Part shown: positions 1 through 42,219 of the stretch, piece after piece | How the letters are laid out: each line of letters starts with the position of its first letter | Numbering within the stretch: the stretch's first letter is position 1 | Virus record (IMG/VR): IMGVR_UViG_3300002460_000010 | Coordinates: 1 to 42,488 of that record | Direction: 5' to 3' (one strand) | Origin: a virus | Length of the DNA stretch: 42,488 nt | The notes under the pieces: model-generated | Databases searched by the model: none | What the model saw: the letters and a program-made list of their open reading frames with translations, nothing else | What the model was told of the DNA's origin: nothing | Position numbers and translations under genes: made by a program

Positions 1-52
1 ATTAACACCCCTCTGATATGGGTCTAAACCATCTGGTCACGTAAAAGAGGAA
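1..52. repeat. 52-bp terminal direct repeat, copy 1 (identical to 42437..42488); circular-assembly overlap or short DTR
   Basis: attaacacccctctgatatgggtctaaaccatctggtcacgtaaaagaggaa occurs at both extreme ends of the window. Confidence 0.95.
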
Positions 53-762: not shown

Positions 763-1782
763 ATGGCAAGACCAGTATCAGCATTTAGCGATTTTGTCCT
801 GTCTGTTACAAATCAAACCTACGTAAAGAAAGTGGTTGACAACATTCTTAATGGTAACTTTGGATTAATGAGATTTCTCAGTAATTCACAGCCTTGGAAT
901 GGCGGCGATCAGATTCTTATGCCCATCAAAATACAGAAGGGCACATCAAATGGTTCTTATTCCGGTTTAGATACTTTGAGCACAGCTCAGACTTCTGACC
1001 GAATATTAGCGGCTATTGACACCAGACAGTATTACGCTTCAGTCGTAATCTCAGGTATTCAACAGGCCGTGAACTCAGGCGATGGACGTGTGTTGGATTT
1101 GTTAGCAACAGAGATGGAATCAAAAGCGGCAGATTTGAAAGACACAATGGGAGATGGTTTCTATTCAGACGGAACAGGCAATTCCAACAAGGATATTGTC
1201 GGTCTCCGGGCTGCGGTAGACGATTCAACTTTTGTGACGACTTATGAGGGTATTTCTCGTGCAACTTACACCCAGTGGAGGTCAACTATTACCAGCGACG
1301 CTACGGTAACTCTTCCTGACTTTGCTACGGACTTTAACGCAGCTAAGGTTGGAGCGGAAGATCCTACTCTTATGTTAAGTACTCCAGCAATCTTCAACAT
1401 TTATGAAGCATTGATGGACCAGGATGTAAGATATAACCTTTCCTTTACCGGTTATGACCAGATTTATGGAAAAGGACTTCCGAGAAAGAGCGGCAATCTC
1501 GCACAGGGACAGGGCTTTAACTCTCTGTACTTCCGAGGTATTCCGTTCGTAGCTGACGAGAAATGTACAACCGGACGCTTGTACACCTTGAATGAGAATC
1601 ATATTTTCTTCAAGACATTTAGAAAGCATCCTAAACACAACGCAGAGAAGCACGGCTTCTTCTGGACCGGTTTGAAAGAACCCGTTAACCAGGATGGAGA
1701 TGTGGGTCAATTTCTGTGGTATGGAAACTTAGCCTCTGATGGACCGAGATTCTCGGCTCTCAGATACTCTATAACTGGCTAA
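763..1782 (+). CDS. putative major capsid protein (HK97-fold type)
   Basis: 339 aa with AGGAGG 7 nt upstream of the ATG, directly after the scaffold-like ORF. Size and composition fit tailed-phage major capsid proteins. Called by synteny and general resemblance, not a verified alignment. Confidence 0.65.
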   Translation: MARPVSAFSDFVLSVTNQTYVKKVVDNILNGNFGLMRFLSNSQPWNGGDQILMPIKIQKGTSNGSYSGLDTLSTAQTSDRILAAIDTRQYYASVVISGIQQAVNSGDGRVLDLLATEMESKAADLKDTMGDGFYSDGTGNSNKDIVGLRAAVDDSTFVTTYEGISRATYTQWRSTITSDATVTLPDFATDFNAAKVGAEDPTLMLSTPAIFNIYEALMDQDVRYNLSFTGYDQIYGKGLPRKSGNLAQGQGFNSLYFRGIPFVADEKCTTGRLYTLNENHIFFKTFRKHPKHNAEKHGFFWTGLKEPVNQDGDVGQFLWYGNLASDGPRFSALRYSITG

Positions 1783-15643: not shown

Positions 15644-17113
15644 ATGGCGCTAAATACAAGCACATCGGTCGTAGACTTCTTAAAATTGCAGAATAAACCT
15701 TCTGATTTTAACTCACGTTTAGCTTTATATGAGTCCTCCGGCCTTAAGGATGCTTTTGGCGATTATAGGGGAACGGCGGAGCAGAATAGTACACTATTAC
15801 AAAAGTTATCCGCAACTCAACAACAAGCTCCAGCAGCACCTTTACCACCCTTACCTTCCGGTGGCTTAACTGAAAAAGACATTATTGATCAGACAGGGCC
15901 AGGCACTGTTTCTAATATCAACGACCTAGATCAGCCTGAAGAGTCAGTAGAAGAAAAACAAGCCAGAATAGAAGCTGAAGGACAGTTAGCTAGAGGCGGA
16001 GAAGGGCTTACAAGGGGAGTAGCTGGTTTACAGGCAGGAGCGGAAGCAACTATTTCCGGATTAGCAAAGAAAGGTACTCAAATACAAGAACAAATAGGTG
16101 AACAAGCGGCCGGATTTGGCGGTGCTTTTTCTGGTAAAACTAAGAAATCTCAAGCTGAAGTAGCTCAAGAAGTAGCAGAAAAACAGGCCCTTACCAGACA
16201 AAAACTCGGCGATGATATTTATAATTTATTCAGTAAAGAAGAACAAGCATTAGGAACAGAGTTCTTATCTCGTTTATCTATACCCGAAGCTCAGGAATTT
16301 GCCTCTAAAATACCCGCTCCAATTAGAGGGGTAGTTATGAACACTTATCAACAGGCTGTTGAAAAAGCTCAAGAGAAGGCCCAAAAGAGTGCTGCTGATA
16401 CGCTTGAGAAGCTAGGTTATGTTGTTGTTGGTGGAAAACTTGTATCTACATTAGCTGGTAGGACAGCAGAAAGAGCGGATGAAGCGGCAGTAAGAGCAGA
16501 AAGGACTGCCGAAAGACAAGATGCGATGTTAGAAATTTCGGAGAGAAGATTACAATTAGCAGAACGAGCAGCTCAAAATGCTTTGACTACTAATAATCTA
16601 ACCCCAAGACAGAACGCTACCTTCCTTAGAATCTCTGATAATTTTCAGAAGGATTCGGTTATTAAAAGTGCGGGTGCGGCGGTTAATGCTAGGACTATAG
16701 CTGACCAAGTTATTGCTAATCCTGGTAGTGCTGGTAATCAATTAAAGATACTCTACACTTTAGTTAAATCGTTAGACCCAGATACGGCCGTTAGAGAAGG
16801 TGAGTTATCACTTGTTCAAAGCACTCAAAGCTATATTGGCAGATGGGAGACTACTCTTGAAAAGTTATCAACAGGTAAACTTGTGGATAATAAAACAGCT
16901 CTTGAGCTGGCTAAGGCAACTAAGGAACTTGCTGATATGTGGGACGCTTCAGCAAAACGAAGAACTGTATTCTATAATTCTCAAGCTAAGACTGGCGGTA
17001 TCGGAAAGGCTTGGGGTGAGTATACTGGCGGGATAGAAGCCGGGATGGCTGAATTAGATGCTGGGGGCGGAGGAGGAGCGGATGGAGGAAACAATAACCC
17101 ATTAGGAATATAA
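15644..17113 (+). CDS. putative internal virion / ejection protein
   Basis: 489 aa, Ala/Glu/Gln-rich coiled-coil-like middle and Gly-rich C-terminus. The N-terminal 'VVDFLKLQNKPSDFNSRLALYESSGL…GTAEQNSTLLQKL' resembles LysM-like wall-binding modules (recollection, unverified). Confidence 0.35.
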   Translation: MALNTSTSVVDFLKLQNKPSDFNSRLALYESSGLKDAFGDYRGTAEQNSTLLQKLSATQQQAPAAPLPPLPSGGLTEKDIIDQTGPGTVSNINDLDQPEESVEEKQARIEAEGQLARGGEGLTRGVAGLQAGAEATISGLAKKGTQIQEQIGEQAAGFGGAFSGKTKKSQAEVAQEVAEKQALTRQKLGDDIYNLFSKEEQALGTEFLSRLSIPEAQEFASKIPAPIRGVVMNTYQQAVEKAQEKAQKSAADTLEKLGYVVVGGKLVSTLAGRTAERADEAAVRAERTAERQDAMLEISERRLQLAERAAQNALTTNNLTPRQNATFLRISDNFQKDSVIKSAGAAVNARTIADQVIANPGSAGNQLKILYTLVKSLDPDTAVREGELSLVQSTQSYIGRWETTLEKLSTGKLVDNKTALELAKATKELADMWDASAKRRTVFYNSQAKTGGIGKAWGEYTGGIEAGMAELDAGGGGGADGGNNNPLGI

Positions 17114-21319: not shown

Positions 21320-21945
21320 TTCCCTTTAATAATACCATATAATTGTATTGCCTTATGTTGATAAGTATCTGTTTCTTTATGACAACTTTTACACAGGGTT
21401 CTGCCATTAGAAACCTTAAATCTTAATTTAGGGAAATAAGCAAAGGGTAAAATATGGTCAGCTTCTAGTTTTCCACCCCTCTTTTTACACCATACGCAAG
21501 TCCAGTTATCTCTTTTAAAAACCTTTCTGCGCCATATTTTATATTTTAAGCTTTTTCTAATTAAATTATTAATAGAAGTAACTCCTCCCCTCCATGCTCT
21601 ATTATTACTTCCTAAATTCCAATATGCAGATTTTCCTACCCTTGCTTCTTTTAATTTTTTGACATAACTATCAGAAAATTTTTTATTTAACCAATATCTT
21701 ATTTTTGGCCTTAATTTATTTTTATAAAGAAACTTTTGTTTGGCACTAATTTTCTTTTTAGTTTTAGTTGTCTTTAACCTCCCTTTATTACTATCAGATA
21801 AAGCTTTTAATCTACATAAATGAGAGCAGTATTTATTAGGATTATACTTCTGAAGCTTTTTAATTTCAAATATATTATTGCACCTGTGGCAAGTTGTTTT
21901 TGTCATATTTATCTTTCTTATAAACATAGTCCCATAATTCTTCAA
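21316..21945 (-). CDS. HNH endonuclease with Cys-rich N-terminal repeats
   Basis: 'CVWCKKRGGKLEADHILP…NGRTLCKSCHKE', with N-terminal 'CHRCNN…YCSHLC'. The likely true start is ATG 21927 or 21906; the track start is TTG. Confidence 0.75.
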   Translation of the reverse strand: MKNYGTMFIRKINMTKTTCHRCNNIFEIKKLQKYNPNKYCSHLCRLKALSDSNKGRLKTTKTKKKISAKQKFLYKNKLRPKIRYWLNKKFSDSYVKKLKEARVGKSAYWNLGSNNRAWRGGVTSINNLIRKSLKYKIWRRKVFKRDNWTCVWCKKRGGKLEADHILPFAYFPKLRFKVSNGRTLCKSCHKETDTYQHKAIQLYGIIKGK

Positions 21946-23053
21946 TTATAAACTTATTTAAATCTTTTTGATATATTGAATTTTCATAAGCTTCTTTTGC
22001 GGGTCCTGCGGATTCTTTTAAAAGTTGGAGCCAAGTAGGATGATAAATCAACATAGATGAATTAGTTTTACCATGTTTTTCCATATTCCATTTATCCCAA
22101 GGCCGCTGAACGATTAATTCATTAAATGTCATTTTCCTGCGGTTCTCAATAGTAGCTCTTCTTTTTACCATTTCTATTTTTGCCTCTGCCATCATTTGGT
22201 CTAATGTATCTTTCCTTCCTTTCCTTAAATAGTTTATATATGCTCTCTCAATCCAATCATCAGCTCCTAAAGCCCAGCCACAATTAAAGATATTGTGGAT
22301 ATATGAATCGTGATGATAAACATAATTTCTACCTGAAGATAGATGATAACCGATTGCATTAGGGTCAGTAACTACAGTAGAACCATACATCCACCAAAGA
22401 CAATCGACGAATACTTCACCCCCGCCATAAGTCCTGTGAACTTCCGGATAGCCGCCAAAATCTAAGAACTGATCTCTCTGAACCATCACTCCCCAATGGC
22501 CTTGTCCGGCTACAGCAAAGGGAGTATCGGCAACTTTGTAGTTATTCCAAGTCATCTTCCATTCTTCCCCTAATTTAAAAGTATAACCATAACCCATACC
22601 CCCATGATGGGGTGGATAAGCTCCCATCCATTGTACTGAACCATGTACAATTCCTCCTGTGTCTTGACAGGTCTTAATTATAGATTTAAAAAATCCTGGC
22701 TTAAAAGCAATATGAGCATCTGAGAAGTATAAATATTCTCCTCTAGCTATCTGGGCTCCTTTGTTCCGCGCGGAATGATTACCTGCTATTGGGTCGTACA
22801 AAACTCTAACTTGCCTAGACCAAAACATTCCTCGTGGCATAAAGTAAGAGGTAGTTCCTTTCGTTCCTTTTTGAGGCCAGAAATTATTATCAGTAGAACA
22901 ATTATCAACAACTATAATTTCCCAATCTTCAGGAGAGAATCCATCTGCCTCAAGGCAATGAATAGCGGAGTAGATCGTATGAACGATGTTCGGAAATTCG
23001 TTACGGGCGGGAATGATGACGCTTAGTTTTAGTGTGGGTTTAGGTGGTAACAT
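21875..23053 (-). CDS. GT-A fold glycosyltransferase (GT2-like, DxH variant)
   Basis: 'LSVIIPARNE', 'IIVVDNCSTDN', 'YFSDAHI', 'YGGGEVFVDCLWWMYG'. Confidence 0.65.
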   Translation of the reverse strand: MLPPKPTLKLSVIIPARNEFPNIVHTIYSAIHCLEADGFSPEDWEIIVVDNCSTDNNFWPQKGTKGTTSYFMPRGMFWSRQVRVLYDPIAGNHSARNKGAQIARGEYLYFSDAHIAFKPGFFKSIIKTCQDTGGIVHGSVQWMGAYPPHHGGMGYGYTFKLGEEWKMTWNNYKVADTPFAVAGQGHWGVMVQRDQFLDFGGYPEVHRTYGGGEVFVDCLWWMYGSTVVTDPNAIGYHLSSGRNYVYHHDSYIHNIFNCGWALGADDWIERAYINYLRKGRKDTLDQMMAEAKIEMVKRRATIENRRKMTFNELIVQRPWDKWNMEKHGKTNSSMLIYHPTWLQLLKESAGPAKEAYENSIYQKDLNKFIIEELWDYVYKKDKYDKNNLPQVQ

Positions 23054-23324
23054 TTAATTTTAACCATAAGTTGGCTATTGCTGCTTCGGGAGTTGAGCCG
23101 AAGGTAAAACATAATTCCAGATCACCTTCGGCCATCCATTTATCAAGTGCATCTTGCCTGTAATTGAGAGCCTTAAATCTATTTCCACACGCTTCTATAA
23201 GTTCAGAGAGAGTCGGGAATCTCTCGTTAAAGGTAACCTTAGTTCCGTCGGGTAATTCCATAACGCCAAAAGAAATTGGTTTAAACCCCGCGTCTTTTAA
23301 TTGTTTTGCTAATTCGTAGTTCAT
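23040..23324 (-). CDS. hypothetical protein
   Basis: ATG 23324 forms an ATGA overlap with the stop of 23321..24340 (MNYELAKQLKDAGF…). The track start 23345 is less likely. Confidence 0.55.
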   Translation of the reverse strand: MNYELAKQLKDAGFKPISFGVMELPDGTKVTFNERFPTLSELIEACGNRFKALNYRQDALDKWMAEGDLELCFTFGSTPEAAIANLWLKLNVTT

Positions 23325-24340
23325 ATATTTTTTGGGAATCTGCATTTTGCTAATAAAGGTGTGTGGGTTGTATCAATTCCTGTCGGTTCACCTGCGGCTG
23401 AGAAGAACTGCACCTCTTCAAAGAAATGAGAGAGGACGGCATGGAACTCCTGGCTCGTGAACTCGCGGACGTGATAGATATTTCTGGGCTTATCCTTTTG
23501 GATCGTCTTATGATTCCTATTAGGCGTAGATATGAAATACTCTGTAGGGTTATCTTTGCTTTTAGTATCAAACTTCTTGGTTATCTGCTCCAAGAACTTA
23601 TAACAATCCGCTATATGCTCTATTATCTCTATCGCCACGACTATATCAAACTTCATCGTCTCTCTATTCTCATTTACAATATCAAAGACATCAAAACTAA
23701 CTTGACTATTGTAATAAACACCATTCTTAACCCTAGTAAATGCTTCTTTAGCGAACTGAACACTAAGCTCATTCTTATCTATGCCCCATACAAAATCAGC
23801 TTCTTGAGAAATAACATTAGAACCAACACCCGAACCACAACCCACATCTACGACTGTCGGCTTCCAAATAAACTTAGGGTATTGAGGATGCTGGGTAGCC
23901 TTCCACATACAGTGGTTCTTGATGAACTCATACATCAACCGTGTCGGCTTCCACAATAAAACACCATTGTGCATAAATAAATCTATATTAGCCTTCACCT
24001 GGTTCTTATCCGGCATCTCCGGATTTTCCTGATAATCAGGATCTGAAATAAGGGTGTTGGGAGTCGCGACCTCAGTTTTACTCTCGTTTAAAGGCATCGT
24101 AGGAGCTTGTTTTTCCTCGGTTTGGGTATTTTCTAAGGATAAGGCCGCTTTGCCGGAAGGTTCATCTATAGGCTGAGTTTGAACTATATTTTGAGGTTGC
24201 TGTCTCAATTCTTCTTCTTCTTTCTTCTTATCCTCTATCTCTTTGGCTTGTCGGTCATAACAGACATAGCAAAGAAGATTAACAAAGTCATCCGGTATAG
24301 GGCTTTCGCATACATCGCATTTTTTATTTTGTTCCGACAT
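23321..24340 (-). CDS. zinc-ribbon + class I SAM-dependent methyltransferase fusion
   Basis: N-terminal 'CDVCESPIP…CYVCYD', an E/K/Q-rich linker, then 'VVDVGCGSGVG' motif I and 'IVVAIEIIEHI'. No DPPY/SPPY motif, so probably not a DNA amino-methyltransferase. Confidence 0.65.
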   Translation of the reverse strand: MSEQNKKCDVCESPIPDDFVNLLCYVCYDRQAKEIEDKKKEEEELRQQPQNIVQTQPIDEPSGKAALSLENTQTEEKQAPTMPLNESKTEVATPNTLISDPDYQENPEMPDKNQVKANIDLFMHNGVLLWKPTRLMYEFIKNHCMWKATQHPQYPKFIWKPTVVDVGCGSGVGSNVISQEADFVWGIDKNELSVQFAKEAFTRVKNGVYYNSQVSFDVFDIVNENRETMKFDIVVAIEIIEHIADCYKFLEQITKKFDTKSKDNPTEYFISTPNRNHKTIQKDKPRNIYHVREFTSQEFHAVLSHFFEEVQFFSAAGEPTGIDTTHTPLLAKCRFPKNI

Positions 24341-24657: not shown

Positions 24658-25275
24658 TTATAGTACTAGTCTCCACTTTCCCCTCGTTACTTTCTCTATA
24701 CCGCAATGTACCCAAGCCTTCCTGCAAGAACCCCACTTTTTTTGATATATGCCCATAGAGTGAGGAAAACCATTTAGTCGCTCTGGGTAGCGATCTCTTT
24801 CTTTGATTTCCTTTTTGAGTTTGCGATTAAACTCTGGTGGATAAGGGAGATAGCTTCGTCCATCAATCCAGCGTGGATGGTCTTCTTTTTTTCTTTTACC
24901 TTCTTTAACCCATTTGTCATAGCATAACCTGGAACAAAATTTACATGGTTTTTTATTAATTTGAGCAGGAAATCGGTAGAAGTTTTTTTTACACTGAATA
25001 CAAGCTCTACTAATCTTACCTCCTTTCCATCCTGCACGGCTTTTACTACCTCTGTAATTTTCTGAAATAAATTGATAGGCACATTTTCTCGTGCAGAATT
25101 TCTTTTGATGACTTGGGAATGTCCAGTATTTTTTGCCACATATTTGACATTTTGTTTCATATTTTCTTTTAAGTGTCGTCCAATAACATTCTACTGAACA
25201 AAATTTAGACCTTTTCTTTCTCGGTTTTTTGCACCCCACGCATAGAAATGAGTTTGTTGTTATATTCATCAGCAA
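24658..25275 (-). CDS. Cys-rich paralog of the HNH-endonuclease N-terminal region, no recognisable HNH core (possibly decayed)
   Basis: Three 'C-x2-C … (F)C(S/T)xxC' repeats as in 21316..21945, and 'RWIDGRSYLPYPPEFNRKLKKEIKERDRY'. No CxxC…HH…N…H nuclease motif follows in any of the three frames I translated. Confidence 0.45.
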   Translation of the reverse strand: MLMNITTNSFLCVGCKKPRKKRSKFCSVECYWTTLKRKYETKCQICGKKYWTFPSHQKKFCTRKCAYQFISENYRGSKSRAGWKGGKISRACIQCKKNFYRFPAQINKKPCKFCSRLCYDKWVKEGKRKKEDHPRWIDGRSYLPYPPEFNRKLKKEIKERDRYPERLNGFPHSMGIYQKKWGSCRKAWVHCGIEKVTRGKWRLVL

Positions 25276-26008
25276 TATCTAATAAGCTCATTTTAGCAAC
25301 TTTTTTGAGGGCTTGCAAGTCTTTCGGCAAACACTTGGACTCCTTAATTGTTCCATACCCTCTATAGCCTTTATGAAAGATGACGGAATGTGAATCTCCA
25401 ATCCATCTATTCTGGACGAGGACTTCACGAATAGTCTCATAATCCGCTCCCACCTCTTTACTAGCATCGTATAGTTGGTTGAACCAGGTGACCTTAAGAG
25501 CGTAATACGAGTTTTGAGCATGTTTAAGTAGCTCAGCATCAAGCGGTGATACGACTCTTTTGACAGGGGCTTCGGGTAAGATTTTGAAGATTTCATGTAC
25601 TAGTGATAACGACTGCTGAGGACAACCAAGTATCTGGAATTGAGGCTTGGTAAAGTCTTCCCAGGCAGTCATTTCGGTTAAAAATTCACAATTATAAACA
25701 AATCTTAAATGGGGATATTTTTCTTGGAACCAATCTAGCGTGCCGGGGATAAATGTGCTCTTGATAATAACGATGCTACCTTTCTCCATCGTGGCGAAGT
25801 AGTTATTAAGAGCTGACTTACTGTCTTCACTTGCACAATTATCCTGGAAGTTAGCGCAAACAAAGAATACTTCGGCTTTTCTGACTTCTTCCCAGGAATC
25901 GCAGGGACCTCGGACATCATAGCCTTTAGCATCGGGATAGTATCTCTTAAGTATCTGGCCTATAAAACCATTACTTCCTATTATCCCGATTGTTTTTTTT
26001 GTGTCCAT
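25205..26008 (-). CDS. truncated UDP-glucose/GDP-mannose 6-dehydrogenase-family protein
   Basis: 'IGIIGSNGFIG' NAD loop, 'NCEFLTE' (cf. NPEFLREG), 'AELLKHAQNSYYALKVTWFNQ', 'KCLPKD' catalytic-Cys block. At 267 aa the C-terminal nucleotide-sugar-binding domain is absent. Confidence 0.6.
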   Translation of the reverse strand: MDTKKTIGIIGSNGFIGQILKRYYPDAKGYDVRGPCDSWEEVRKAEVFFVCANFQDNCASEDSKSALNNYFATMEKGSIVIIKSTFIPGTLDWFQEKYPHLRFVYNCEFLTEMTAWEDFTKPQFQILGCPQQSLSLVHEIFKILPEAPVKRVVSPLDAELLKHAQNSYYALKVTWFNQLYDASKEVGADYETIREVLVQNRWIGDSHSVIFHKGYRGYGTIKESKCLPKDLQALKKVAKMSLLDIADEYNNKLISMRGVQKTEKEKV

Positions 26009-26136
26009 TTTCGTGTAGTTTCTCTTTTACGTTTTGTTTTACAGTCGAAGCAGGTAATCATTATTCCTCTGTTGCTACGCGTCATTATACTTTTACAATA
26101 ACGGCATTTAACTTTGTAACGGTTTATCTTTCTCAT
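25981..26136 (-). CDS. unlisted 51-aa zinc-ribbon ORF (CxxC-x17-CxxC)
   Basis: MRKINRYKVKCRYCKSIMTRSNRGIMITCFDCKTKRKRETTRKWTQKKQSG. GGAGG lies 6 nt upstream of the ATG. It bridges the 99-nt gap between GroEL and the dehydrogenase, overlapping each by about 28 nt. Below the ORF-track size cutoff. Confidence 0.45.
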   Translation of the reverse strand: MRKINRYKVKCRYCKSIMTRSNRGIMITCFDCKTKRKRETTRKWTQKKQSG

Positions 26137-27571
26137 CGTTGGCCTCCACCAAAATTCCTTTAGTTGTAATTAACAACGACACAATAGACACGGCAGATTC
26201 CACGCCCGCAATCAGCACCTCCACCGGATCTATAATATCTTCTCCAACTTCTAATTCTTTTACCTCCATATTCTCTAACAATTGTTGGTGAGGATATTTA
26301 AGAGCAGCATTTAAAATACCGCTGGATGTTTTAATCTCGCCTAAAGTAACACCCGCACCCATTACTACACCATCTTTAAACGCTACCTTGGTTGCATTAA
26401 CCGCGTCTTCCACCTTGTACCTTAAGGCCTTCATTTCATTCTCCGTAGCGCCACCGACCTTTATAACCGCTACGCCGGAAGTTAGCTTGGCTAACCGGTC
26501 CTTCATCTTATCTTTCTTTAACTCTGATTCTGTAGTTTCAATAATAGCTTTGAGCTTGGTAACATACTCATCTATCTTCTTGCCGTGTCCTCCGACTATA
26601 GTTGTAGAATCCTTAGTAAGAATTACTTTGTCGGCCATACCCAGGTCCTCTAATTGCACATCCTCTATCTTCTTCCCTAAGTCGCCGGCAATAAAGCTGG
26701 AACCGGTAAGCTCGGCTACATCCATTAAGAACTCATACTTATCATTGGAATAGTATGGAGCTTTAACAGCAGGGAAGAGGCCGACACCCTTTACGTAATT
26801 TATTACTAATGTGGCCAAGGCCTCTCCCCTGATGTCATCAGCTATAATGAGGAGCTGCCTGTTCCCCGACGCCACTACTTTGTTCATTAATGGAACTAAC
26901 TCCTTTACATCTACCAGCTCCCTATCAGTTACGAATATATAGGGCTTATCCAATATCGTCTCGGCCTTCTCCGGGCTATTAATAAAATAAGGAGAAGCAA
27001 AACCACGGGGGAACTGGAGGCCTTTTACTACGGTATGGGTCGTCTCCATCGAGCGGGATTCTTCTATAGTAACAATGGCTTCATGGCCGAGTTCAGATAG
27101 AATCTCGGAAATAACCTCAGCCATCTTTTCGTTATTAAAAGATATATAAGCTACTTGCTTGAGGTCTTCTTTGCTTGTTATCTGTCTGGCTTTGGCTTTT
27201 ATCTGAACCTTGAACTCTTCTAACCCTTGTTGTAAGTCAGCTATAACTTCACGGGCTTTGTAAGATTCCAGTGCCTTGATTTCTTTCATCAACGCTTGAA
27301 GCATTATAAGAGAGGACGTTGTGCCGTCACCAACGCGATCATTGGTCTTCACGGCTACTTCTTTTACTAGCTGAACTACGGAGTTCTCAAACTCATCCGG
27401 TAATTCAAACTCTTTAGCCGTAGCAACGCCATCATCTATTACTTCTTGGCGATTACCACGTTGGAGGATTACTTTATTCTGAGCCGGGCCGTAAGTAGGT
27501 TTTACAAAATCACAGAGCTTATCAACGGCGTCAAAGATTAATGGGTTTAGTTTTTGGGTGTATTTTTTCAT
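26108..27571 (-). CDS. groEL: group I chaperonin GroEL/Cpn60 homolog (short, 487 aa)
   Basis: 'VGDGTTSS', 'QFPRGFASPYFIN', 'LLIIADDIRGEALATLVIN', 'AVKAP', 'GVAVIKVGGATENEMKALRYKVEDAVNATKVAFKDGVVMGAG' all align with conserved E. coli GroEL blocks. It lacks the GGM tail and about 45 aa of the C-terminal equatorial region. Confidence 0.9.
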   Translation of the reverse strand: MKKYTQKLNPLIFDAVDKLCDFVKPTYGPAQNKVILQRGNRQEVIDDGVATAKEFELPDEFENSVVQLVKEVAVKTNDRVGDGTTSSLIMLQALMKEIKALESYKAREVIADLQQGLEEFKVQIKAKARQITSKEDLKQVAYISFNNEKMAEVISEILSELGHEAIVTIEESRSMETTHTVVKGLQFPRGFASPYFINSPEKAETILDKPYIFVTDRELVDVKELVPLMNKVVASGNRQLLIIADDIRGEALATLVINYVKGVGLFPAVKAPYYSNDKYEFLMDVAELTGSSFIAGDLGKKIEDVQLEDLGMADKVILTKDSTTIVGGHGKKIDEYVTKLKAIIETTESELKKDKMKDRLAKLTSGVAVIKVGGATENEMKALRYKVEDAVNATKVAFKDGVVMGAGVTLGEIKTSSGILNAALKYPHQQLLENMEVKELEVGEDIIDPVEVLIAGVESAVSIVSLLITTKGILVEANDEKDKPLQS

Positions 27572-28917
27572 TCGTAGTAAAGTGGCTCAACCTGGTGCTT
27601 AAAGATATGGTCAAGCGAATAATTCTTGAGCAACTCTCTCTGCCCCAATAGAGGTTTATTTATATTCATTTGGTTTTCTATAATCGCCGCCCAGTCAGCG
27701 TAATACTTGTCTTCATCAGTATAATTAACTACGGTGTCTTTACTCCCAAACTCCATATATAAAGAATGGTCTCCACCAAATTCTCTAAGCTGAGGGACAT
27801 TGGCATTTAAAACGAGGAGGTTCTTTGATAACATAGCCTCCAATAATATCAGCGAACAGTTCTCACTAATTGTAGGAAATACGAATAAGTTTGACAAGAG
27901 GAAAAGTTGAGAAACTATCTCTCTACTTACCCCAGCTTCATACTTCGGGATTTCTTCAAGAGACGTAAAGATAACTTCATCAGGATCAAGCCCCCAAGAA
28001 GCAAATGTAGCTTGTAAACTTTGAATATTTTTCTTTTCCCTTTCATGATTAGCGTGAGCATTGGCGATAATATATTTAACTTTGTGTCCTCTGGCTTTGA
28101 GTTTAGCGAATACTCTAACCGCTTTCTGAACCTGTTTACCATCCACCATCCGAGTAGAAGAAAGAGGATAAATCCCCATGTAATCAGCAGATAATAAATC
28201 ATATTTATTAATTAAGTTTATAACAAAAGGGTCAAGTTGCCAAAAGGTTCTGGGGTCTACTACATTGTGGACAACCCGGACTTCGGATAACCAAGTTCCA
28301 TACATTTCAGCTAAAGCCAGGGCATGATAGTTGTTTAAGTAAATTATCTTAGCGTTGCGGGGTTTGTTAAATCTAAAGCTATGTATACCGGTAGGTTCTC
28401 TTACTGATGGAGCTGAATGAGTCCAGAGAAGCCATTTGGCTTTAATCAAATCATACTGGCAAATCTCGTGAATAGCTCCGCAATAAGGAATATAGGTGTC
28501 AATGAAGTGCATATCATGAGCAATCATCACATCTATGTCGGCAGCGAACTGTCTCAGAGCGCTCACGACAAGCTTAACCTCGTCCTTAAATTCTTCTGGT
28601 TGGCCGAAGCTCTTGTATTTTTCCAGTATTAATTGAGGGATGACTTTTCTAATCTCCACTCCTTTAGGTATTTTGTCATCATCTTTAAATGACGGCAGAA
28701 CGAATAAGACACATTTATATCCGTGCTTGAGGTTCATTTCGAGTTGGTCATGGATAACCGAAGTAACTGAATAAGCCCTACTCCAGTCGTAGTGCGTGGT
28801 CATAAAACCGATTGTCTTCTTAAGTTCCTCCATAGTTTGATACTTTCTCCTGGCAGTGAAGCCAGAGAGCGGGGATTTCTCCCTCCCCCAGTAGATTGCT
28901 CTACCAGGAGAAAACAT
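27568..28917 (-). CDS. GT-B fold glycosyltransferase (GT4-like)
   Basis: 'FVFPTISENCSLILLEAMLSKNLLVLN' (GT4 C-terminal EX7E-type block). Its stop overlaps the GroEL ATG (ATGA). ATG 28917 overlaps the upstream TGA (TGATG); ATG 28833 (MEELKK…) is an alternative. Confidence 0.65.
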   Translation of the reverse strand: MFSPGRAIYWGREKSPLSGFTARRKYQTMEELKKTIGFMTTHYDWSRAYSVTSVIHDQLEMNLKHGYKCVLFVLPSFKDDDKIPKGVEIRKVIPQLILEKYKSFGQPEEFKDEVKLVVSALRQFAADIDVMIAHDMHFIDTYIPYCGAIHEICQYDLIKAKWLLWTHSAPSVREPTGIHSFRFNKPRNAKIIYLNNYHALALAEMYGTWLSEVRVVHNVVDPRTFWQLDPFVINLINKYDLLSADYMGIYPLSSTRMVDGKQVQKAVRVFAKLKARGHKVKYIIANAHANHEREKKNIQSLQATFASWGLDPDEVIFTSLEEIPKYEAGVSREIVSQLFLLSNLFVFPTISENCSLILLEAMLSKNLLVLNANVPQLREFGGDHSLYMEFGSKDTVVNYTDEDKYYADWAAIIENQMNINKPLLGQRELLKNYSLDHIFKHQVEPLYYE

Positions 28918-29288
28918 CAAATCTCATATTTCTTGATCCAGTTGCAGTTAGCGCATAATAGCTGATACCGGTTCTTATCTACTTCTCCTTTTATAATTTT
29001 TAAATATATTTTACGCTTACTTAAACCGTATTTCTTCCTGTCTTCCGGTGCATCATCGTTAACATGGTCTAGCTGTAATACTCTGTAATCAGAATTATCA
29101 CACCTTTTACATTTACCACCATACATTTCAAGCAATAATAACCTTACTCGTTGTTCGCGACTCAGTGACCGTACCTTAGTCATTACCTCATCATAGTCCT
29201 CCCTAGATGCTTTTCTAATGGGGACTTTCGTCACCATTATATTATACAATAAATCTTGATATATGTTATCAACAAGCTTAATTTCCAC
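28917..29288 (-). CDS. HNH endonuclease
   Basis: 'CKRCDNSDYRVLQLDHVND' and 'LLCANCNWIK'. The start is uncertain: GTG 29288 directly abuts GGGAGG, and ATG 29237 is the alternative. Confidence 0.7.
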   Translation of the reverse strand: MEIKLVDNIYQDLLYNIMVTKVPIRKASREDYDEVMTKVRSLSREQRVRLLLLEMYGGKCKRCDNSDYRVLQLDHVNDDAPEDRKKYGLSKRKIYLKIIKGEVDKNRYQLLCANCNWIKKYEI

Positions 29289-33261: not shown

Positions 33262-34812
33262 TTAAAATGGTTTGTTATTATCTATATTACTCTTATCCAT
33301 ATCGGTGTCAATATCTTTATCTACGGAGTTATCCACAGGAACTTCAACTTCAGCCCGGATGTTGTATTTTTCTAATAAACGAGGCAGAAGATCAGCTAAG
33401 GACCCTAATTTTATATAACTCTTATTCTGATAGCGTTCCACTTCAAAACCTAAATCCATTAAATCTCTTTTTATTCGTTTAGGGTTCCAAGTCTTCTTAA
33501 AATCAAAATCAGACATATCGCTACCAAAAGAACTTTTAGCCTCGTTTATTATTTCAGTAAGACTTATTCTGGCTGCCGGAGAACCTAGCAAGTTGTTTTC
33601 TCTAACTGCTTCGGTTAAGTTAAAGATGAGACGTATAATCTGAATGCGTTGCTCATCACTAGCTGAATCAATAGCAACTTTCTCTTGTTTACGCATATAA
33701 TCAATCATTACAACTCTATCTTCCAAATTACCCATTTTTAAAAGAGGCATAATCGTATCATTAAAACGAGCAATCATACCAGGAACAATTAAAATACGGT
33801 CCTCTAAAAAGATATTCTGCCAACGCCATTTAAGCAATAAATTAACAATTACTTGAAACTCCAAACGTCTTTCGTTGTGCCACCAACTCTCATCATTCCT
33901 TCTCATAACATCTTGGAGATCCTTATCTCTTGGAGTGAGCTTAAAAGGAATAACGCGGGAAGCGAGGGCATCATCGCGAATCATATTACGCTTAACTAAT
34001 ATCTTAGGTTGGTCTACTCTAAAAGATGATGGCTTAAACTTCTTACCCTCTTGTTCCGCTACAATGTAGTGGCCGCCTTCACGATAACCATTACGAAGGA
34101 TTGTATTCATTTTCTCTGAATCTTGCCGGTAATCTATCTTATCAAGCTCATCTAACATAACCGTAGAGCCGGTCATCTCTAATATACGGGCCAAAGAAGG
34201 AGCGGAGATGTCATCAGTTATAAGTCCATTCTGGCAAAGCTGAGTGATAAACTTACCCCACTCGGTCTTACCAGTCCCATAGTCCCCGAAGATTAACAGA
34301 TAAGGACGGCGGTAGAAGCGCTCATAAACCCAAGTAAATTTAATGTAGTTGCGGGCTATAACGAAGTAGTCGTCAGGGTGAGCATGCCACGCCTTTAAGA
34401 ACTCAGTTATCTTTTGATCTATTATATCTGTTGGCACGAGGTCTTCAATTATGGTATCGGGGAAGATAATATCATCGTAGAAACCACGATAGAATTGATC
34501 AATTATCGGAGGAACCTTAATTAAAAGTCCGTCTATTGTTTTAAACTCTTTACATAGTTCATAACTCTCTCCATTCCATTTAACAAAGGTAGGGGTCTTA
34601 GCTCCGGTCTTAGGGTCAACCGAAACCATAGTATTAACACAGATTTTATTTTTTAAATCAACGTAATTAAAGCGATAGACAAAATCATCTTTGTCTTGTT
34701 TCTCTTTTAATTTCTTTTCAACTTTCTTTTCTAAAGAAGTTAAACCAAGAGCTTGGTCAACCTCCTCGCTTGTTTCAGAATCTATTAAAGAGTTTAATTC
34801 GTAATCATTCAT
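33262..34812 (-). CDS. P-loop NTPase, putative replicative (SF3/primase-associated type) helicase
   Basis: 'LLIFGDYGTGKT' Walker A and 'VMLDELD' Walker B. At 516 aa it is the largest early ORF. Confidence 0.45.
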   Translation of the reverse strand: MNDYELNSLIDSETSEEVDQALGLTSLEKKVEKKLKEKQDKDDFVYRFNYVDLKNKICVNTMVSVDPKTGAKTPTFVKWNGESYELCKEFKTIDGLLIKVPPIIDQFYRGFYDDIIFPDTIIEDLVPTDIIDQKITEFLKAWHAHPDDYFVIARNYIKFTWVYERFYRRPYLLIFGDYGTGKTEWGKFITQLCQNGLITDDISAPSLARILEMTGSTVMLDELDKIDYRQDSEKMNTILRNGYREGGHYIVAEQEGKKFKPSSFRVDQPKILVKRNMIRDDALASRVIPFKLTPRDKDLQDVMRRNDESWWHNERRLEFQVIVNLLLKWRWQNIFLEDRILIVPGMIARFNDTIMPLLKMGNLEDRVVMIDYMRKQEKVAIDSASDEQRIQIIRLIFNLTEAVRENNLLGSPAARISLTEIINEAKSSFGSDMSDFDFKKTWNPKRIKRDLMDLGFEVERYQNKSYIKLGSLADLLPRLLEKYNIRAEVEVPVDNSVDKDIDTDMDKSNIDNNKPF

Positions 34813-36583: not shown

Positions 36584-36665
36584 TTAATTTTTAAAGACCT
36601 CCCGCACGATCTTATTATGGTGCTTATTAACACCCGAATTGGCCCATAAAGGCCAATACCGGCTA

Positions 36666-36800
36666 TTAGTTAGCAAAAGACGATAATATCAACGCTAGAA
36701 CAAAAACCACGCCAACAAGCCAGATATATACACGATTCCGGCGCGTATATTGCTCTATTTGGTAGTTCTCTAGCTCTTTTTGTTTATGTTTGTATATCAT
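36666..36800 (-). CDS. unlisted 44-aa tail-anchored membrane ORF, apparently leaderless
   Basis: MIYKHKQKELENYQIEQYTRRNRVYIWLVGVVFVLALILSSFAN. The ATG lies 6 nt after a TATACT -10 box and there is no SD. Confidence 0.4.
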   Translation of the reverse strand: MIYKHKQKELENYQIEQYTRRNRVYIWLVGVVFVLALILSSFAN

Positions 36801-36806
36801 AATTAG

Positions 36807-36835
36807 AGTATACTCCGATGATGTTTAGGTGTCAA
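36807..36835 (-). promoter_or_regulatory. sigma70-type early promoter (leftward)
   Basis: The - strand reads TTGACA-17 nt-TATACT-ctaatt-ATG. Confidence 0.6.
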
Positions 36836-36890
36836 TAGAGTATGCTTGTGGATAACCAAAACCAACGCCACGAAATGCTAAAAAAACGCA

Positions 36891-37487: not shown

Positions 37488-37494
37488 CATAGAT

Positions 37495-38424: not shown

Positions 38425-39912
38425 TTGTTCTCTATGGGAAATAACATCCCAACTAAAAAACTAAAGTTCCGCAATTTAGATACGGGAGAAATTCTGAAGG
38501 AGTTTGATTTATCTTTAAAGCAGCATCAGTTTGTAAAGGACGAAGGCCATCGCTACGCTCTTTATAGCGGTGGTTTTGGTGCTGGTAAAACTTTAGCTTT
38601 AGAATTAAAGATTCTCTACTTAGCATTAAAATATCCCAAGAACACTATATTAGTAGGTCGTCAACATTATCAAGATCTAAGAGATACTGTCCAAAAAGAG
38701 TTTTTTGAGCTTTGTCCCGAGGAATACATAGCTAACTTTATCAAGTCGGAACGTAAAGCCGTCCTCACTAATGGTTCTGAAATCCTCTTCCGTCACTTAG
38801 ATAAAGTATCGGAAAAAGAAATCCGCTCTCTTAACTTAGGAGCGTTTGCTATTGATCAGATGGAAGACGTGGCAGAGCCGGTCTATCTTGCCCTTAAAGG
38901 TAGATTAAGAAAAGCCGGGACATCCCAGCAGGGTTTTGGCACATCTAACCCCGCTCCTAGTTGGATATTCAGGGAATTTAAACAGCAATCTAAACCTGAA
39001 AATCTCCTCTTGGAAACCTCTACACTGGAAAACCCGCACCTCAGCCAGGCCTATATAGATGACTTAATGAAATATCCCGATTACTGGAAAAAGCAGTTTG
39101 TTTTCGGGGAATGGGACACGGCGATTATGGGCGACCGTAACGTCTATCACTTGGATATAACTAGGGAATTGGAGAAGAATATAATATTACCCGAGAAAGC
39201 TACGATACTTGATGACATCAGAATTTACAAAACTAAATTTGACAATGATGATTTCTTGCAGATGGGTGTGGATATCTCGGAAGGAGTCGGGGGCGATGCG
39301 TCCGTCATCTCTGTTGTTAATTGTAAGGATGGAGAAGAGATAGCATTTTGGCAAGGCCAGCTCCCTCCTGATATTTTAGTAGAGAAAGCCCTCCGGGTAA
39401 TTGAATACTTAAACGCGAGAACCAAAAGGCCGATGCTTATTGTGCCTGAGATTAACGGTCTTGGCATAGCGTTCTTAACCCATATAAAAAAATCTTATAA
39501 TCAGATATATAAACGTGAAGTATTCTTAAAGCAAAGCAAGGAAAGAAAGGAAGTGTTAGGATGGAAAACCAGTGTCAGCACTAAACCGTTGCTTATTAAT
39601 AATCATGTAGACCTGCTCCGAAACCAACACCTCACGGTCCATACTCCGGAAATTATTGAGCAAATGAAGACGTTTGTTTATACGGATGATGCTAAGAAGA
39701 GCGGCATGGGGGCGGACCCTGGCTTTCACGATGATGCGGTTATCGGTCACGCTCTGGCCTGCTTTTTTCAGCCGGCGATTAAAATGCAATTAATTTCATC
39801 GGTAAAAAATATTAATAAAAGTGGTCTGGTCAGAGAGGCTTACAACCCTTTGGGGGAATCCATTAAGGATTTATTTGCGAAGCCTGAATCTGACTGGATG
39901 ACTAATTCATAG
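38425..39912 (+). CDS. terL: terminase large subunit
   Basis: 'LYSGGFGAGKTLAL' Walker A, 'FAIDQMED' Walker B-like, and a C-terminal nuclease-type 'MGVDISEGVGGDAS'. The track start is TTG 38425; ATG 38434 is the alternative. Confidence 0.8.
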   Translation: MFSMGNNIPTKKLKFRNLDTGEILKEFDLSLKQHQFVKDEGHRYALYSGGFGAGKTLALELKILYLALKYPKNTILVGRQHYQDLRDTVQKEFFELCPEEYIANFIKSERKAVLTNGSEILFRHLDKVSEKEIRSLNLGAFAIDQMEDVAEPVYLALKGRLRKAGTSQQGFGTSNPAPSWIFREFKQQSKPENLLLETSTLENPHLSQAYIDDLMKYPDYWKKQFVFGEWDTAIMGDRNVYHLDITRELEKNIILPEKATILDDIRIYKTKFDNDDFLQMGVDISEGVGGDASVISVVNCKDGEEIAFWQGQLPPDILVEKALRVIEYLNARTKRPMLIVPEINGLGIAFLTHIKKSYNQIYKREVFLKQSKERKEVLGWKTSVSTKPLLINNHVDLLRNQHLTVHTPEIIEQMKTFVYTDDAKKSGMGADPGFHDDAVIGHALACFFQPAIKMQLISSVKNINKSGLVREAYNPLGESIKDLFAKPESDWMTNS

Positions 39913-40173
39913 ATGAATATACAACCGTTAAATGAGAATGTGTTGGTTCGGGTCCTTAAAGATGAAGAAGAAGGCGGCAGCGTAATCCTCCCCGATATGC
40001 ACGAGGCCCAGAAGTTTGGTGCAGGCGAGGTGTTAGCGGTAGAGGAAGATATGCCGATAAAGGTTGGCGATGTTGTTTTATTTGACACAGTTCTGTTAAT
40101 TCATGTTAAAATGAAAGGAGAAGATTTAAGGTTTATTAAATTTACTGATATACTTGGTTATGAGCAGCGATAA
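39913..40173 (+). CDS. groES: GroES/Cpn10-type co-chaperonin
   Basis: MNIQPLNENVLVRV…GGSVILPD…GAGEVLAV…VGDVVLFD parallels E. coli GroES MNIRPLHDRVIVKR…GGIVLTG…RGEVLAV…VGDIVIFN. The ATG directly abuts the TerL stop. Confidence 0.8.
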   Translation: MNIQPLNENVLVRVLKDEEEGGSVILPDMHEAQKFGAGEVLAVEEDMPIKVGDVVLFDTVLLIHVKMKGEDLRFIKFTDILGYEQR

Positions 40174-40519
40174 GGAAAAGGAAGAATATATTAAAGGGAT
40201 AGAGAAGAAGTATAAAGGCAGGCGCGGGTTTGGCTTCTTGTTCAAAAAAGCTCAGCGTGAAACTTACAAAGACGATATCCTCCAACCTTATCAGCCCAAA
40301 TTTAAACAACGCTGGTATAAAGCATGGAAAGACCGGCAGTTAATGTATGATGCGGTCGACCGTAAGGTAGCGAGAGATGAACAGGAAATTGAAAATATTT
40401 ATAGGCGGAATAAGATTAAAGGAAATGTGGTTACTTTAGAAAAAAAGATATTAAAGGATATACACCTTGAACACCCGACAATGATGTCGGAATCTGATAT
40501 AATTAAACATGATGGCTGA
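40160..40519 (+). CDS. hypothetical basic protein
   Basis: ATG 40160 (the track start is TTG 40154). Lys/Arg-rich, lying between GroES and portal. Confidence 0.5.
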   Translation: MSSDKEKEEYIKGIEKKYKGRRGFGFLFKKAQRETYKDDILQPYQPKFKQRWYKAWKDRQLMYDAVDRKVARDEQEIENIYRRNKIKGNVVTLEKKILKDIHLEHPTMMSESDIIKHDG

Positions 40520-40530: not shown

Positions 40531-42219
40531 ATGGAAGATACAATTAATCAGGAGGGGCAGGTTGCATCTGACGCTAAGGATGTTTTAGATGTTCTGCCTG
40601 ACGACTCCGAGCTTGTCACTAAGATAAATTCTTGGTTAGCGGAATCCAAGGACTTTTATACTACTCTATATGAAGCTCAAAAAAAGTCGGAGGATTATTA
40701 TTTAGGCAAACAAACTAAACGTGATCAAGTCCCTAATCACCTTTCTAATTTTGTCCAAAATAGAATCTTTGAATCAGTAGAAACCATCCTCCCTATCATT
40801 ACTTCCAAACCGGCGGAGTTTATTGTTAAGTCACCAGATGTCTCCGAACTCGGACCGATGAAAGCCAGGAAAGTTCAGATGGAACTTTCCGACTTATACG
40901 ACAGGTTACAAATATCTCAAAAACTTGAAGATGCTTCCCGTAGCGCTCTCAACTATCGTTTCGGTGTTTTAAAGGCGGAGTGGGACACTAACACGGATAA
41001 GCCAAACCTAAAGTTCGTCCGCTCCCAGCGTATTCGTATTCCTAATTATGGCGGGAGATTTGTTAAAGGTTTACCTTATTTAATTGAAAAGATTGATATG
41101 GATTTTCAGGAGATCAAGGATTTCTTCGGCGAAGCGACGGCTAACGAATTAGCCTCTATGTCAAAACCCGAAGGCGGGGCCGAGGAGGACATGCCGGTTA
41201 ATAAAAGAGTTTGGACTATTAATGAAGTCTGGACCGATTGGTGGAGGTGTTGGAAATATGAGAATAAAATTTTAAAAAAGGAAAAGAACCCTTACTGGAA
41301 TTTTGATGACGTTACTAAAAACCATTTAGATAAACCCGCCAAACCCTATTTCTTAATTGCTCCCTTCTCTCTCGGCAAATCTCCCATCCCCGAAACTTCT
41401 TTGGTCGAACAAGCCATCCCGATTCAGGATGGTTTAAATGTTGTTTCCCGCATTATTATCAATCATGCTACTAAAACCGGTAATGGCGCTTGGCTGGTGG
41501 ATTCTAATACAATGACTAAGGAAGAAGCTGACCAGATTCGTAACGAACCCGGCATTATCATATATGGCAACGGCGTGGCTAATCCGAACAATGTCCGCCG
41601 CGACTCTCCTCCCCCTCTTCCCGCTTATCTGGCTCAGCTCTGGGATTCTTTGAACGCTACCCTCGATAACCTCTTCGGTGTACATTCTACTACCCGTGGA
41701 GAACGGCAGGGCAAGGAAACGGCGAGAGGACGTATCTTACTTAAGAACGCTGACCTGGGCCGTTTGGATTATATCGTCCGCGAGATTGACCGCGCTGTCC
41801 AGGATGTCGGTAATTACTTTGTTCAGATGATGAAGATGTATTACACCGATGCCCGAAAGCTTAAATACTCTGGCGCAGCTCAGGGTGTGGATGATATGGA
41901 GAGCGACACTATTTCTAATGAAGATGTTGAAGATGGAGTTGAGATATTTGTAACGGCCGGTTCTACTCTGCCGAAAGATGAAGTCTCGGAAGCTGACCAA
42001 GCTCTTCGTTTATGGGAACTCGGCGCGATTGACCCGATCTCTTTATATGAAAAATTACTGTTTAAGAATCCTGAACAATCAGCAGAAAGATTAATGAAGT
42101 GGAAGATGGGCACGCTTATACCTTCAGCCGTCCCGGCTCCTGCCGGCGCTCCTGTAGGTGGAGGAAGTGAGGTCGTCCCGTCTCCGTTAGCAGGAATATT
42201 ACCAACGGGAGGGCAATAG
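40531..42219 (+). CDS. putative portal protein
   Basis: 562 aa, SD gaggaggaataatATG, downstream of TerL and upstream (across the junction) of scaffold and capsid. Called on size and position. Confidence 0.6.
   Translation: MEDTINQEGQVASDAKDVLDVLPDDSELVTKINSWLAESKDFYTTLYEAQKKSEDYYLGKQTKRDQVPNHLSNFVQNRIFESVETILPIITSKPAEFIVKSPDVSELGPMKARKVQMELSDLYDRLQISQKLEDASRSALNYRFGVLKAEWDTNTDKPNLKFVRSQRIRIPNYGGRFVKGLPYLIEKIDMDFQEIKDFFGEATANELASMSKPEGGAEEDMPVNKRVWTINEVWTDWWRCWKYENKILKKEKNPYWNFDDVTKNHLDKPAKPYFLIAPFSLGKSPIPETSLVEQAIPIQDGLNVVSRIIINHATKTGNGAWLVDSNTMTKEEADQIRNEPGIIIYGNGVANPNNVRRDSPPPLPAYLAQLWDSLNATLDNLFGVHSTTRGERQGKETARGRILLKNADLGRLDYIVREIDRAVQDVGNYFVQMMKMYYTDARKLKYSGAAQGVDDMESDTISNEDVEDGVEIFVTAGSTLPKDEVSEADQALRLWELGAIDPISLYEKLLFKNPEQSAERLMKWKMGTLIPSAVPAPAGAPVGGGSEVVPSPLAGILPTGGQ

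Follow-up and report, generated by a model that had tools for sequence, protein, structure and literature searches.

IMG/VR virus record IMGVR_UViG_3300002460_000010, considered here over its positions 1 to 42,488 (42,488 nucleotides, hereafter the window), encodes a short GroEL and a roofless GroES at separate loci, 12.3 kb apart and on opposite strands. A preliminary description made from the letters alone had reported this combination, and both open reading frames (ORFs) are as it described them and pass the Pfam thresholds. We consider it on balance probable that the two proteins form a co-adapted phage chaperonin pair, probably acting as a single ring, that folds phage proteins. In the mechanism we propose, the GroEL, which keeps a three-domain subunit, the catalytic aspartates and a hydrophobic apical site for GroES and substrate, would form a single heptamer closed by seven copies of the roofless GroES that the phage itself encodes, and the ring is predicted to be still nucleotide-driven. 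Its most likely job would be to fold structural proteins of the phage (capsid, portal) without recourse to the host chaperonin, with the major head protein as a candidate client.

26108..27571, minus strand: short GroEL (Cpn60) of 487 amino acids (aa), identified by Pfam, PDB, AF2 and PHROG
39913..40173, plus strand: roofless GroES (Cpn10) of 86 aa, identified by Pfam, PHROG and PDB
763..1782, plus strand: major head protein (PHROG 9953 'major head protein', 5e-52)

On GroEL homology, which the preliminary description had called unambiguous, Pfam, PHROG, PDB and a confident fold model agree. The ORF matches Pfam PF00118 (Cpn60_TCP1) with 108.5 bits (cut-off 34.3, E 4.7e-31), PHROG 'chaperonin groEL' at 5e-100 and solved bacterial GroEL structures at 1e-96 to 1e-87, and all the motifs quoted earlier are present (GDGTT, QFPRGFASPYFIN, LLIIADDIRGEALATLV and VAVIKVGGATENEM...VEDA). 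Its AF2 model, built on a 74-sequence alignment (pLDDT 88.3, pTM 0.79), shows the usual three domains, and each of the top 50 Foldseek matches to this model is a chain of a group I chaperonin, such as bacterial GroEL or mitochondrial Hsp60, with a TM of 0.76-0.88 to GroEL chains and an identity of 33-37% to bacterial GroEL. Identity to E. coli GroEL is 38%, and the landmarks of this reference agree with the PDB alignments. Among the NCBIfam models, the ORF passes the subfamily cut-offs of NF009487 (399 vs 352) and NF000592 (398.1 vs 397) and falls below that of the 'chaperonin GroEL' equivalog TIGR02348 (392.2 vs 582.1 bits), its match ending at residue 415. Membership of the chlamydial GroEL2/GroEL3 groups was rejected, as NF038369 and NF038370 give 174.8 and 103.4 bits against cut-offs of 600. 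The window system shares with bacterial GroEL/GroES the three-domain subunit, the GDGTT motif, D52, D398 and D495, the hydrophobic helices H and I and a Cpn10 partner, and differs from it in being without inter-ring contacts, GGM tail and GroES roof, and in having unlinked genes instead of a groES-groEL operon.

The smaller ORF matches Pfam PF00166 over profile positions 1-91 of 93 (46.5 bits, cut-off 21.1, E 3.8e-12), PHROG 3188 'co-chaperonin GroES' at 6e-10 and solved GroES/Cpn20 structures at 1e-6 to 2e-4. For both ORFs, scores such as these lie well outside what chance would give. It stays under the cut-off in all 14 matching NCBIfam GroES models (best 40.2 vs 96 bits), which marks it as a divergent Cpn10 and not as an equivalog. 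The preliminary description had placed it, correctly, between terminase and portal, and had allowed that it might prove to be an unrelated β-barrel head protein; a non-Cpn10 head protein was rejected, since three libraries call the ORF Cpn10/GroES and the mobile-loop motif is present. The GroES ATG directly abuts the TAG stop of the terminase large subunit (TerL) gene with no spacer, and the 3' end of the gene shares 20 nt with a 121-aa ORF.

38425..39912, plus strand: TerL (Pfam Terminase_3 / Terminase_6N)
39958..40011, plus strand: GroES mobile loop, residues 16-33, KDEEEGGSVILPDMHEAQ, from alignment with E. coli and phage GroES
40042..40053, plus strand: place of the missing roof β-hairpin of ~10 residues, between E45/D46 and M47, from alignments
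40154..40519, plus strand: 121-aa ORF between GroES and portal, with no family match in Pfam, NCBIfam or PHROG
40531..42219, plus strand: portal protein of SU10/P22 type (Pfam PF23899 / PF16510)

In the alignment of the mobile loop, G21-G22-S23-V24-I25-L26 falls on E. coli G23-G24-I25-V26-L27, and three hydrophobic residues come after a glycine; the mobile loop of T4 gp31 is longer. The roof hairpin is absent also from T4 gp31, RB49 CocO and some virome clusters (PMC5649160), and so is not required for co-chaperonin function. An HMMER scan of 1.84 billion representatives with the GroES gave 5 clusters at E <=1e-10 and ~100 weak ones; these relatives are mostly 80-95 aa long, and of the short ones that were aligned about two thirds are roofless. 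A word-index protein search with the GroES returned the query itself as the sole match, single-protein IMG/VR scans found 3 distant loci for GroES and 1 for GroEL, and an AF2 model of GroES from the single sequence, with no alignment, reached a pLDDT of 39.

The GroEL is 61 residues shorter than that of E. coli. Through the N-terminal equatorial, intermediate and apical parts it runs collinear with E. coli GroEL, and all of the loss lies past residue 410. The shorter C-terminal equatorial segment and the missing GGM tail of the preliminary description are both borne out, but the shortening is not a simple C-terminal truncation, as it comprises two internal deletions, which take out the helices of the inter-ring contact and the hairpin that touches adenine.

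26234..26341, minus strand: reduced C-terminal equatorial segment, residues 411-446, from pairwise and family alignments

The 36 residues of this segment stand in for E. coli 419-493. HMMER aligns query 10-410 with 13-417 of chain 9rwr_A and query 443-476 with 487-520, the gap in the PDB alignment setting 32 query residues (411-442) against 69 of the target. In a family alignment of 117 sequences (34 of the window clade and 83 others), E. coli 431-444, comprising a loop and helix O with E434 and D435, is absent from all 117, and helix Q with the hairpin 474-492 is absent from 34/34 window-clade and 11/83 other sequences, a YNxxTGxxG hairpin being recognisable in 72/83 sister sequences (GEAYNAVTGERGQFIKVG is a hairpin of the 474-492 type, and P0039 a sister protein with the hairpin). 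The hairpin-less sequences are scattered over several separate lineages of a rough neighbour-joining tree, one of them nested among hairpin-bearing ones, which suggests repeated loss of the hairpin. After its last strand, the window GroEL has a tail of 11 residues (ANDEKDKPLQS) without a GGM repeat; no such repeat was found in the 11 family sequences displayed, and the listed family tails past E. coli residue 525 span at most 11 residues vs 23 in E. coli. The AF2 model fills the C-terminal equatorial part with helices at 408-412, 418-424 and 426-435, a loop at 436-446, a long last helix at 450-468 and a terminal strand.

The short GroEL belongs to a large family. The best 120 GroEL clusters are 465-524 aa long, bar a few partial sequences, none comes from a contig above 45,967 bp, and the longest contigs of 22 of them span 37-46 kb; with the family alignment as query, an IMG/VR scan yielded at least 568 relatives. 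The sister clade of the window clade consists of uncultured phages on contigs of ~32-46 kb with a GroEL of 465-524 aa (IMG/VR loci L008-L026, and L103-L105 and L095-L099 from the other collections named below), whose GroEL is 40-47% (L008-L025) or 39% (L026) identical to that of the window, and which share with it the helix-O deletion, the lack of a GGM tail, K51D, a roofless GroES and a similar genome size; unlike the window clade, most of them keep the YNxxTGxxG hairpin. Of the 19 closest IMG/VR loci, 17 carry GroES on the GroEL strand and 0-1.2 kb upstream of that gene, and the two loci without it end <331 nt upstream of GroEL. The same pairing is found in the ENA/Logan contigs L103-L105 and in contigs L095-L099, which were binned in Patescibacteria metagenome-assembled genomes (MAGs). 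Three hairpin-less members examined outside the window clade (L103, L104 and L105) have GroES adjacent in each case, and L104, a 46-kb contig, has the pair inside its head module, in the order TerL > portal > small ORF > GroES > GroEL (5724-11416). The usual order in the family is GroES > GroEL > (methyltransferase) > ... > portal > head protein, with sister-clade portal and head proteins 25-37% identical to those of the window (31-37% for the major head protein). One locus, L097 (5917-7738 of a 40.4-kb contig in a Patescibacteria MAG bin), has the order reversed, GroEL then GroES.

A GroEL and GroES pair is thus the rule in the short-GroEL family wherever enough upstream DNA is present, and the rarity that the preliminary description ascribed to a pair in a genome of ~40 kb is true among cultured phages but not in metagenomes, where a large family carries such pairs. 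In the sister clade, the pair lies by the terminase, portal and head genes, whereas that of the window is split. What is peculiar to the window clade is that GroEL was parted from GroES to the other arm of the genome, or that GroES was re-acquired; the window GroES is too short and too divergent to tell relocation from an ancestral operon from a separate acquisition. In a rough neighbour-joining tree rooted on E. coli, the family stands apart from full-length GroEL outgroups, and the GC of the GroEL and GroES genes equals that of the genome, so there is no sign of recent transfer; a recent host-to-phage transfer was rejected on these two grounds.

The apical surface that binds GroES and substrate is conserved as well. 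At positions 199, 203, 204, 234, 237, 259, 263 and 264, where E. coli has Y199, Y203, F204, L234, L237, L259, V263 and V264, the window protein has F, Y, F, V, M, L, V and I, all hydrophobic; across the 34 window-clade sequences, Y203 and F204 are invariant, L259 is found in 33, V263 changes only to I and V264 is only I, L or V. Together with this conserved binding surface, the strict co-inheritance of GroEL and GroES is the strongest argument for a partnership between the two proteins.

Close relatives of the window were reached via homologues of an ORF lying midway between the two chaperonin genes (33262..34812), for which loci of 21 kb were fetched. The order TerL-Cpn10-small ORF-portal recurs in three independent related phages (L088; L090; L093/L094), with Cpn10 at the same position in all four loci; L088, L090 and L093 also have the 121-aa ORF at its place between GroES and portal, 40-59% identical in blastp or global alignments. 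L088 and L090 carry, in addition, GT1-GroEL-UDP-glucose-dehydrogenase-like-methyltransferase on the opposite strand. The split arrangement is conserved across these relatives (L088, L090 and L093/L094). In L091, whose only shared protein is a primase-like one of 47% identity, the 21 kb examined contain neither chaperonin gene. Identities to the window by blastp are 83-89% for TerL, 68-85% for portal, 80% for GroEL and 50-60% for GroES. Non-synonymous divergence (dN) is 0.12-0.15 for GroEL, as low as that of TerL and portal, and 0.27-0.41 for GroES; as synonymous divergence (dS) of the chaperonin, TerL and portal genes is saturated, at >1.5 or undefined, we claim only that dN is much smaller than dS. 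Purifying selection acts on both chaperonin genes, GroES being the faster-evolving of the two.

These relatives bear on whether the two genes might be decaying or passenger host genes without a role in infection, or an assembly chimera, which we hold to be extremely improbable. Host groESL does contaminate some 'viral' contigs, and several loci with a 540-aa GroEL lie at the very end of the fetched DNA (e.g., L028 and L029), although nothing points specifically to such an origin for the window genes. Both ORFs are intact, the same architecture is found in 34 cluster representatives, the position is conserved under purifying selection and the composition matches that of the genome. Moreover, different samples yielded identical GroEL on four contigs and identical GroES on ten, and the genome is closed: an exact direct repeat of 52 bp joins its ends, from which we take the window to be a complete genome of 42,436 bp, circularly closed or permuted. 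Together, these observations effectively refute a passenger or chimeric origin.

1..52, no strand: terminal direct repeat, identical to 42437-42488

Most likely, to judge from the residues at the ring interface, the window GroEL assembles as a single heptameric ring, because both inter-ring salt bridges and the S463/V464 contact are deleted or unconserved. E434 and D435 are deleted in 117/117 family sequences. The window protein also lacks S463 and V464 and has A, E, Q and K in place of K105, A109, R452 and E461, at positions that vary across the family. Mutations of R452, E461, S463 and V464 yield single-ring GroEL (PMC5575113), and the single-ring behaviour of mitochondrial Hsp60 (mtHsp60) fits the absence of the K105-D435 and E461-R452 salt bridges; mtHsp60 and engineered single-ring GroEL depend on a co-chaperonin and are able to work as single rings (PMC5575113). 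The window GroEL resembles mitochondrial Hsp60/Hsp10 and SR1 with its suppressors in lacking K105-D435 and R452-E461, but while their interface was lost by substitutions in a full-length protein, the window GroEL has whole secondary-structure elements deleted.

Several observations weigh against a co-adapted pair. Unlinked genes on opposite strands provide no operon-level argument for co-function in the window genome. The best sister-clade match of the window GroES in phmmer reaches 5e-6 (L012) vs 3e-8 to 8e-8 for the full-length, roofed GroES of L032 and L048, and with so weak a similarity to sister-clade GroES it could be an independent acquisition serving the host GroEL. The chaperonins EL gp146, OBP gp246 and AR9 gp228 need no co-chaperonin (PMC9598537), and single-ring GroEL with ordinary GroES traps its substrate (PMC5575113), so that a single ring would have to bind its GroES less tightly, which is unreadable from sequence. 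Finally, two changes touch the nucleotide site. K51, a weak hydrogen-bond donor to ATP (PMC3053311), is aspartate in 117/117 sequences, an invariant D-D-G replacing K-D-G, and the loss of N479 and A480 removes one of the strongest ATP hydrogen bonds of the simulations (PMC3053311), so that ATP use could be impaired.

The gene arrangement would also suit two independent functions, with GroES retargeting the host GroEL to head proteins in the manner of gp31 and CocO, and the phage GroEL acting without a co-chaperonin. The genes are unlinked and lie on opposite transcription arms, GroES stands among head genes and is roofless like gp31 and CocO, GroES-only phages are common in viromes (PMC5649160), and the phage GroELs studied biochemically are all co-chaperonin independent (PMC9598537). 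We nevertheless regard independent functions as unlikely, since every family member with enough flank has its own GroES, usually directly upstream, since the apical GroES-binding residues are hydrophobic and several of them invariant in the window clade, and since the GroEL is 33-37% identical to bacterial GroEL vs 20% to AR9 gp228. The last comparison, with the presence of a Cpn10 gene, also led us to reject membership of the jumbo-phage chaperonins. These are likewise phage GroEL homologues, and those of OBP and AR9 are single heptameric rings (PMC9598537), the architecture predicted for the window, but they are full length (562 aa for AR9 in BFVD) and come from genomes >200 kb that encode no co-chaperonin. 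T4 gp31 and RB49 CocO (PMC5649160) resemble the window GroES as roofless phage co-chaperonins, theirs being dedicated to the folding of head proteins, but T4 and RB49 have no GroEL of their own and use that of the host, and the window GroES is a Cpn10 of ordinary length that Pfam recognises.

The nucleotide site raises a different possibility, that the short GroEL is no longer an ATP-driven foldase but a passive holdase, or moonlights in a role linked to the neighbouring glycosylation genes. Of 25 nucleotide-site residues, 16 are identical between window and E. coli, 5 are substituted (L31Y, K51D, T91S, G415A and I454L) and 4 are deleted, these being the adenine contacts Y478, N479, A480 and A481, which are missing from all 34 clade sequences. 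The deletion of Y478-A481, the aspartate at 51 and the alanine at 415 would fit such a loss of function, the more so as Asn479 is a major adenine contact, holding a high-occupancy hydrogen bond with the adenine ring in simulations (PMC3053311), and in clade members (window, L088 and L090) GroEL lies between GT1 and a UDP-glucose-dehydrogenase-like gene. On the other hand, T30, G32, D52, D87-T90 and D398 are invariant in the 117 family sequences, and P33 is kept in 114/117 and D495 in 116/117 (with a gap in one). Members with and without the hairpin alike retain the residues that bind phosphate and Mg and those of catalysis. Their retention would be unexpected after loss of the ATPase and makes such a loss unlikely; the hairpin-less L103, L104 and L105 keep an adjacent GroES and the window clade keeps one elsewhere; and dN of GroEL is as low as that of TerL and portal. 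We therefore judge a non-foldase role to be quite improbable, and continue to favour a co-adapted pair that folds phage proteins.

Published parallels are the virioplankton phages that carry a GroEL and their own GroES, some with roofless GroES clusters (Marine et al. 2017, PMC5649160). They share with the window an altered mobile-loop glycine and a GroEL divergent from cellular sequences. That study used only GroELs spanning E. coli residues 8-514, in which 21/25 nucleotide-site residues were identical or synonymous, and inferred GroEL-carrying phage genomes to be >70 kb (PMC5649160); the window differs in its 42-kb genome, its unlinked genes and its nucleotide site, with 16/25 residues identical and 4 deleted. 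Another relative is the TM7 phage DolZOral124_53_65 (MG269973, 38.8 kb, host Saccharibacteria), whose head protein is 30% identical to that of the window and in which a 100-aa ORF that faintly resembles GroES (E 0.008) comes before a gene for a 480-aa Cpn60. With only 26% identity to the window GroEL, this Cpn60 reads GDSTT where GDGTT is otherwise invariant, and it is adjacent to its putative partner, unlike in the window; positions 14894-16625 of this phage (L102) may represent a more degenerate version of the same chaperonin module.

The window genome has a GC content of 39.8%, no tRNA genes and two arms. The leftward arm (~36.6 to 21.0 kb) encodes a primase-like protein, an exonuclease, a DNA methyltransferase, an HNH-like ORF, the glycosyltransferase GT1, GroEL, a UDP-glucose-dehydrogenase-like protein, an S-adenosylmethionine (SAM) methyltransferase, the glycosyltransferase GT2 and RusA; the rightward arm (from 37.5 kb, through the ends, to 21.0 kb) encodes TerL, GroES, the 121-aa ORF, portal, the major head protein, a tail region, a CHAP endolysin and a transglycosylase. 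In the proposed mechanism, GroEL would be supplied from the leftward arm, with the replication and modification genes, and GroES from the rightward morphogenesis arm, so that both halves of the machine would be at hand during head-protein synthesis, a timing read from gene position. The start ATG of GroEL overlaps the stop of GT1 (ATGA), which couples the two genes in translation.

27568..28920, minus strand: glycosyltransferase GT1 (Pfam / PHROG glycosyltransferase)

Sugar and modification genes are unusually numerous for a phage of 42 kb (27568-28920(-), 25205-26008(-), 23321-24340(-), 21875-23053(-), 9422-10744(+) and 4099-5007(+)), the set comprising GT1, a short, 267-aa UDP-glucose/GDP-mannose-dehydrogenase-like protein, the SAM methyltransferase, two GT2 (one within the structural arm) and an asparagine-synthase-like PP-loop protein. 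From translation only, the 123-aa ORF directly upstream of GT1 (28917-29288(-)) resembles an HNH endonuclease, and a cysteine-rich ORF at 24658-25275(-), with repeated CxxC...C motifs, appears zinc-ribbon-like. The midway ORF used to reach the relatives (33262-34812(-)) encodes a 516-aa protein without a Pfam or PHROG match, whose sole distant relatives bear PriCT_1 or Toprim_2 domains; in L088, a DnaG zinc-ribbon protein precedes its homologue, and its product is probably a replicative primase or a relative of one. Antisense to GroEL, a 121-aa ORF (26388-26753(+)), 'conserved' in many loci, was rejected as a gene, being a shadow of GroEL coding conservation. The longest stretch without an ORF of at least 100 aa (36584-37530) divides the leftward from the rightward arm and has one 11/12 sigma-70-like match per strand (36835(-) and 37495(+)); promoter and terminator scans gave counts in this region no higher than the shuffled expectation.

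The host is probably a small-genome bacterium of the candidate phyla radiation (CPR), on evidence that is suggestive only, binning being no proof. Of six strong matches among GTDB contigs with one genome per species, five are phage-like sister-clade contigs in Parcubacteria or Patescibacteria MAGs; the best match of the portal among 50,697 phage records is that of the TM7 phage DolZOral124_53_65 (26% identity, 5e-40); and Hainich groundwater (ERZ1292644), in its 0.1-µm fraction, is a source of window-clade contigs. A clade member labelled Woesearchaeota in NCBI and a sister match in a Blastocatellia MAG weigh against a CPR host.

Phage GroEL and GroES pairs and roofless viral GroES (PMC5649160) as well as single-ring phage chaperonins (PMC9598537) have already been published, and the TM7 phage is in GenBank annotated with a Cpn60. 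A search of the literature on chaperonins in phages of CPR, Patescibacteria and TM7 found no description of the short GroEL, and none, in the literature searched, of the helix-O, helix-Q and hairpin deletions, of the restriction to genomes of ~40 kb or less or of the split arrangement. A family of phages with genomes of ~40 kb revises the published picture in which GroEL phages exceed 70 kb (PMC5649160).

Most work on whether a single ring can function with a co-chaperonin, and on the share of the equatorial domain that is required, has used engineered mutants and mitochondrial Hsp60. The family provides a natural experiment on both, with well over a hundred distinct sequences, each examined one paired with a roofless GroES, in which the inter-ring elements and, in several lineages, also the adenine-contact hairpin are physically deleted. 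The proteins are small, soluble-looking and easily synthesised, so ring number, nucleotide use and GroES dependence are directly testable. It is a possible, though doubtful, further step that the window protein is a naturally minimised, single-ring, GroES-dependent GroEL whose ATP cycle, or nucleoside triphosphate cycle of relaxed specificity, persists without the adenine-contacting hairpin, the two helices of the inter-ring contact or a GGM tail, and which evolved in phages of ultra-small CPR bacteria and frees capsid assembly from the folding capacity of the host. If so, it would be the smallest known functional group I chaperonin, and ~60 residues of the equatorial domain, including a nucleotide contact held to be 'conserved', would be dispensable. 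If the host hints hold, the chaperonin pair would be a striking feature of the CPR/Patescibacteria phages, about which little is known.

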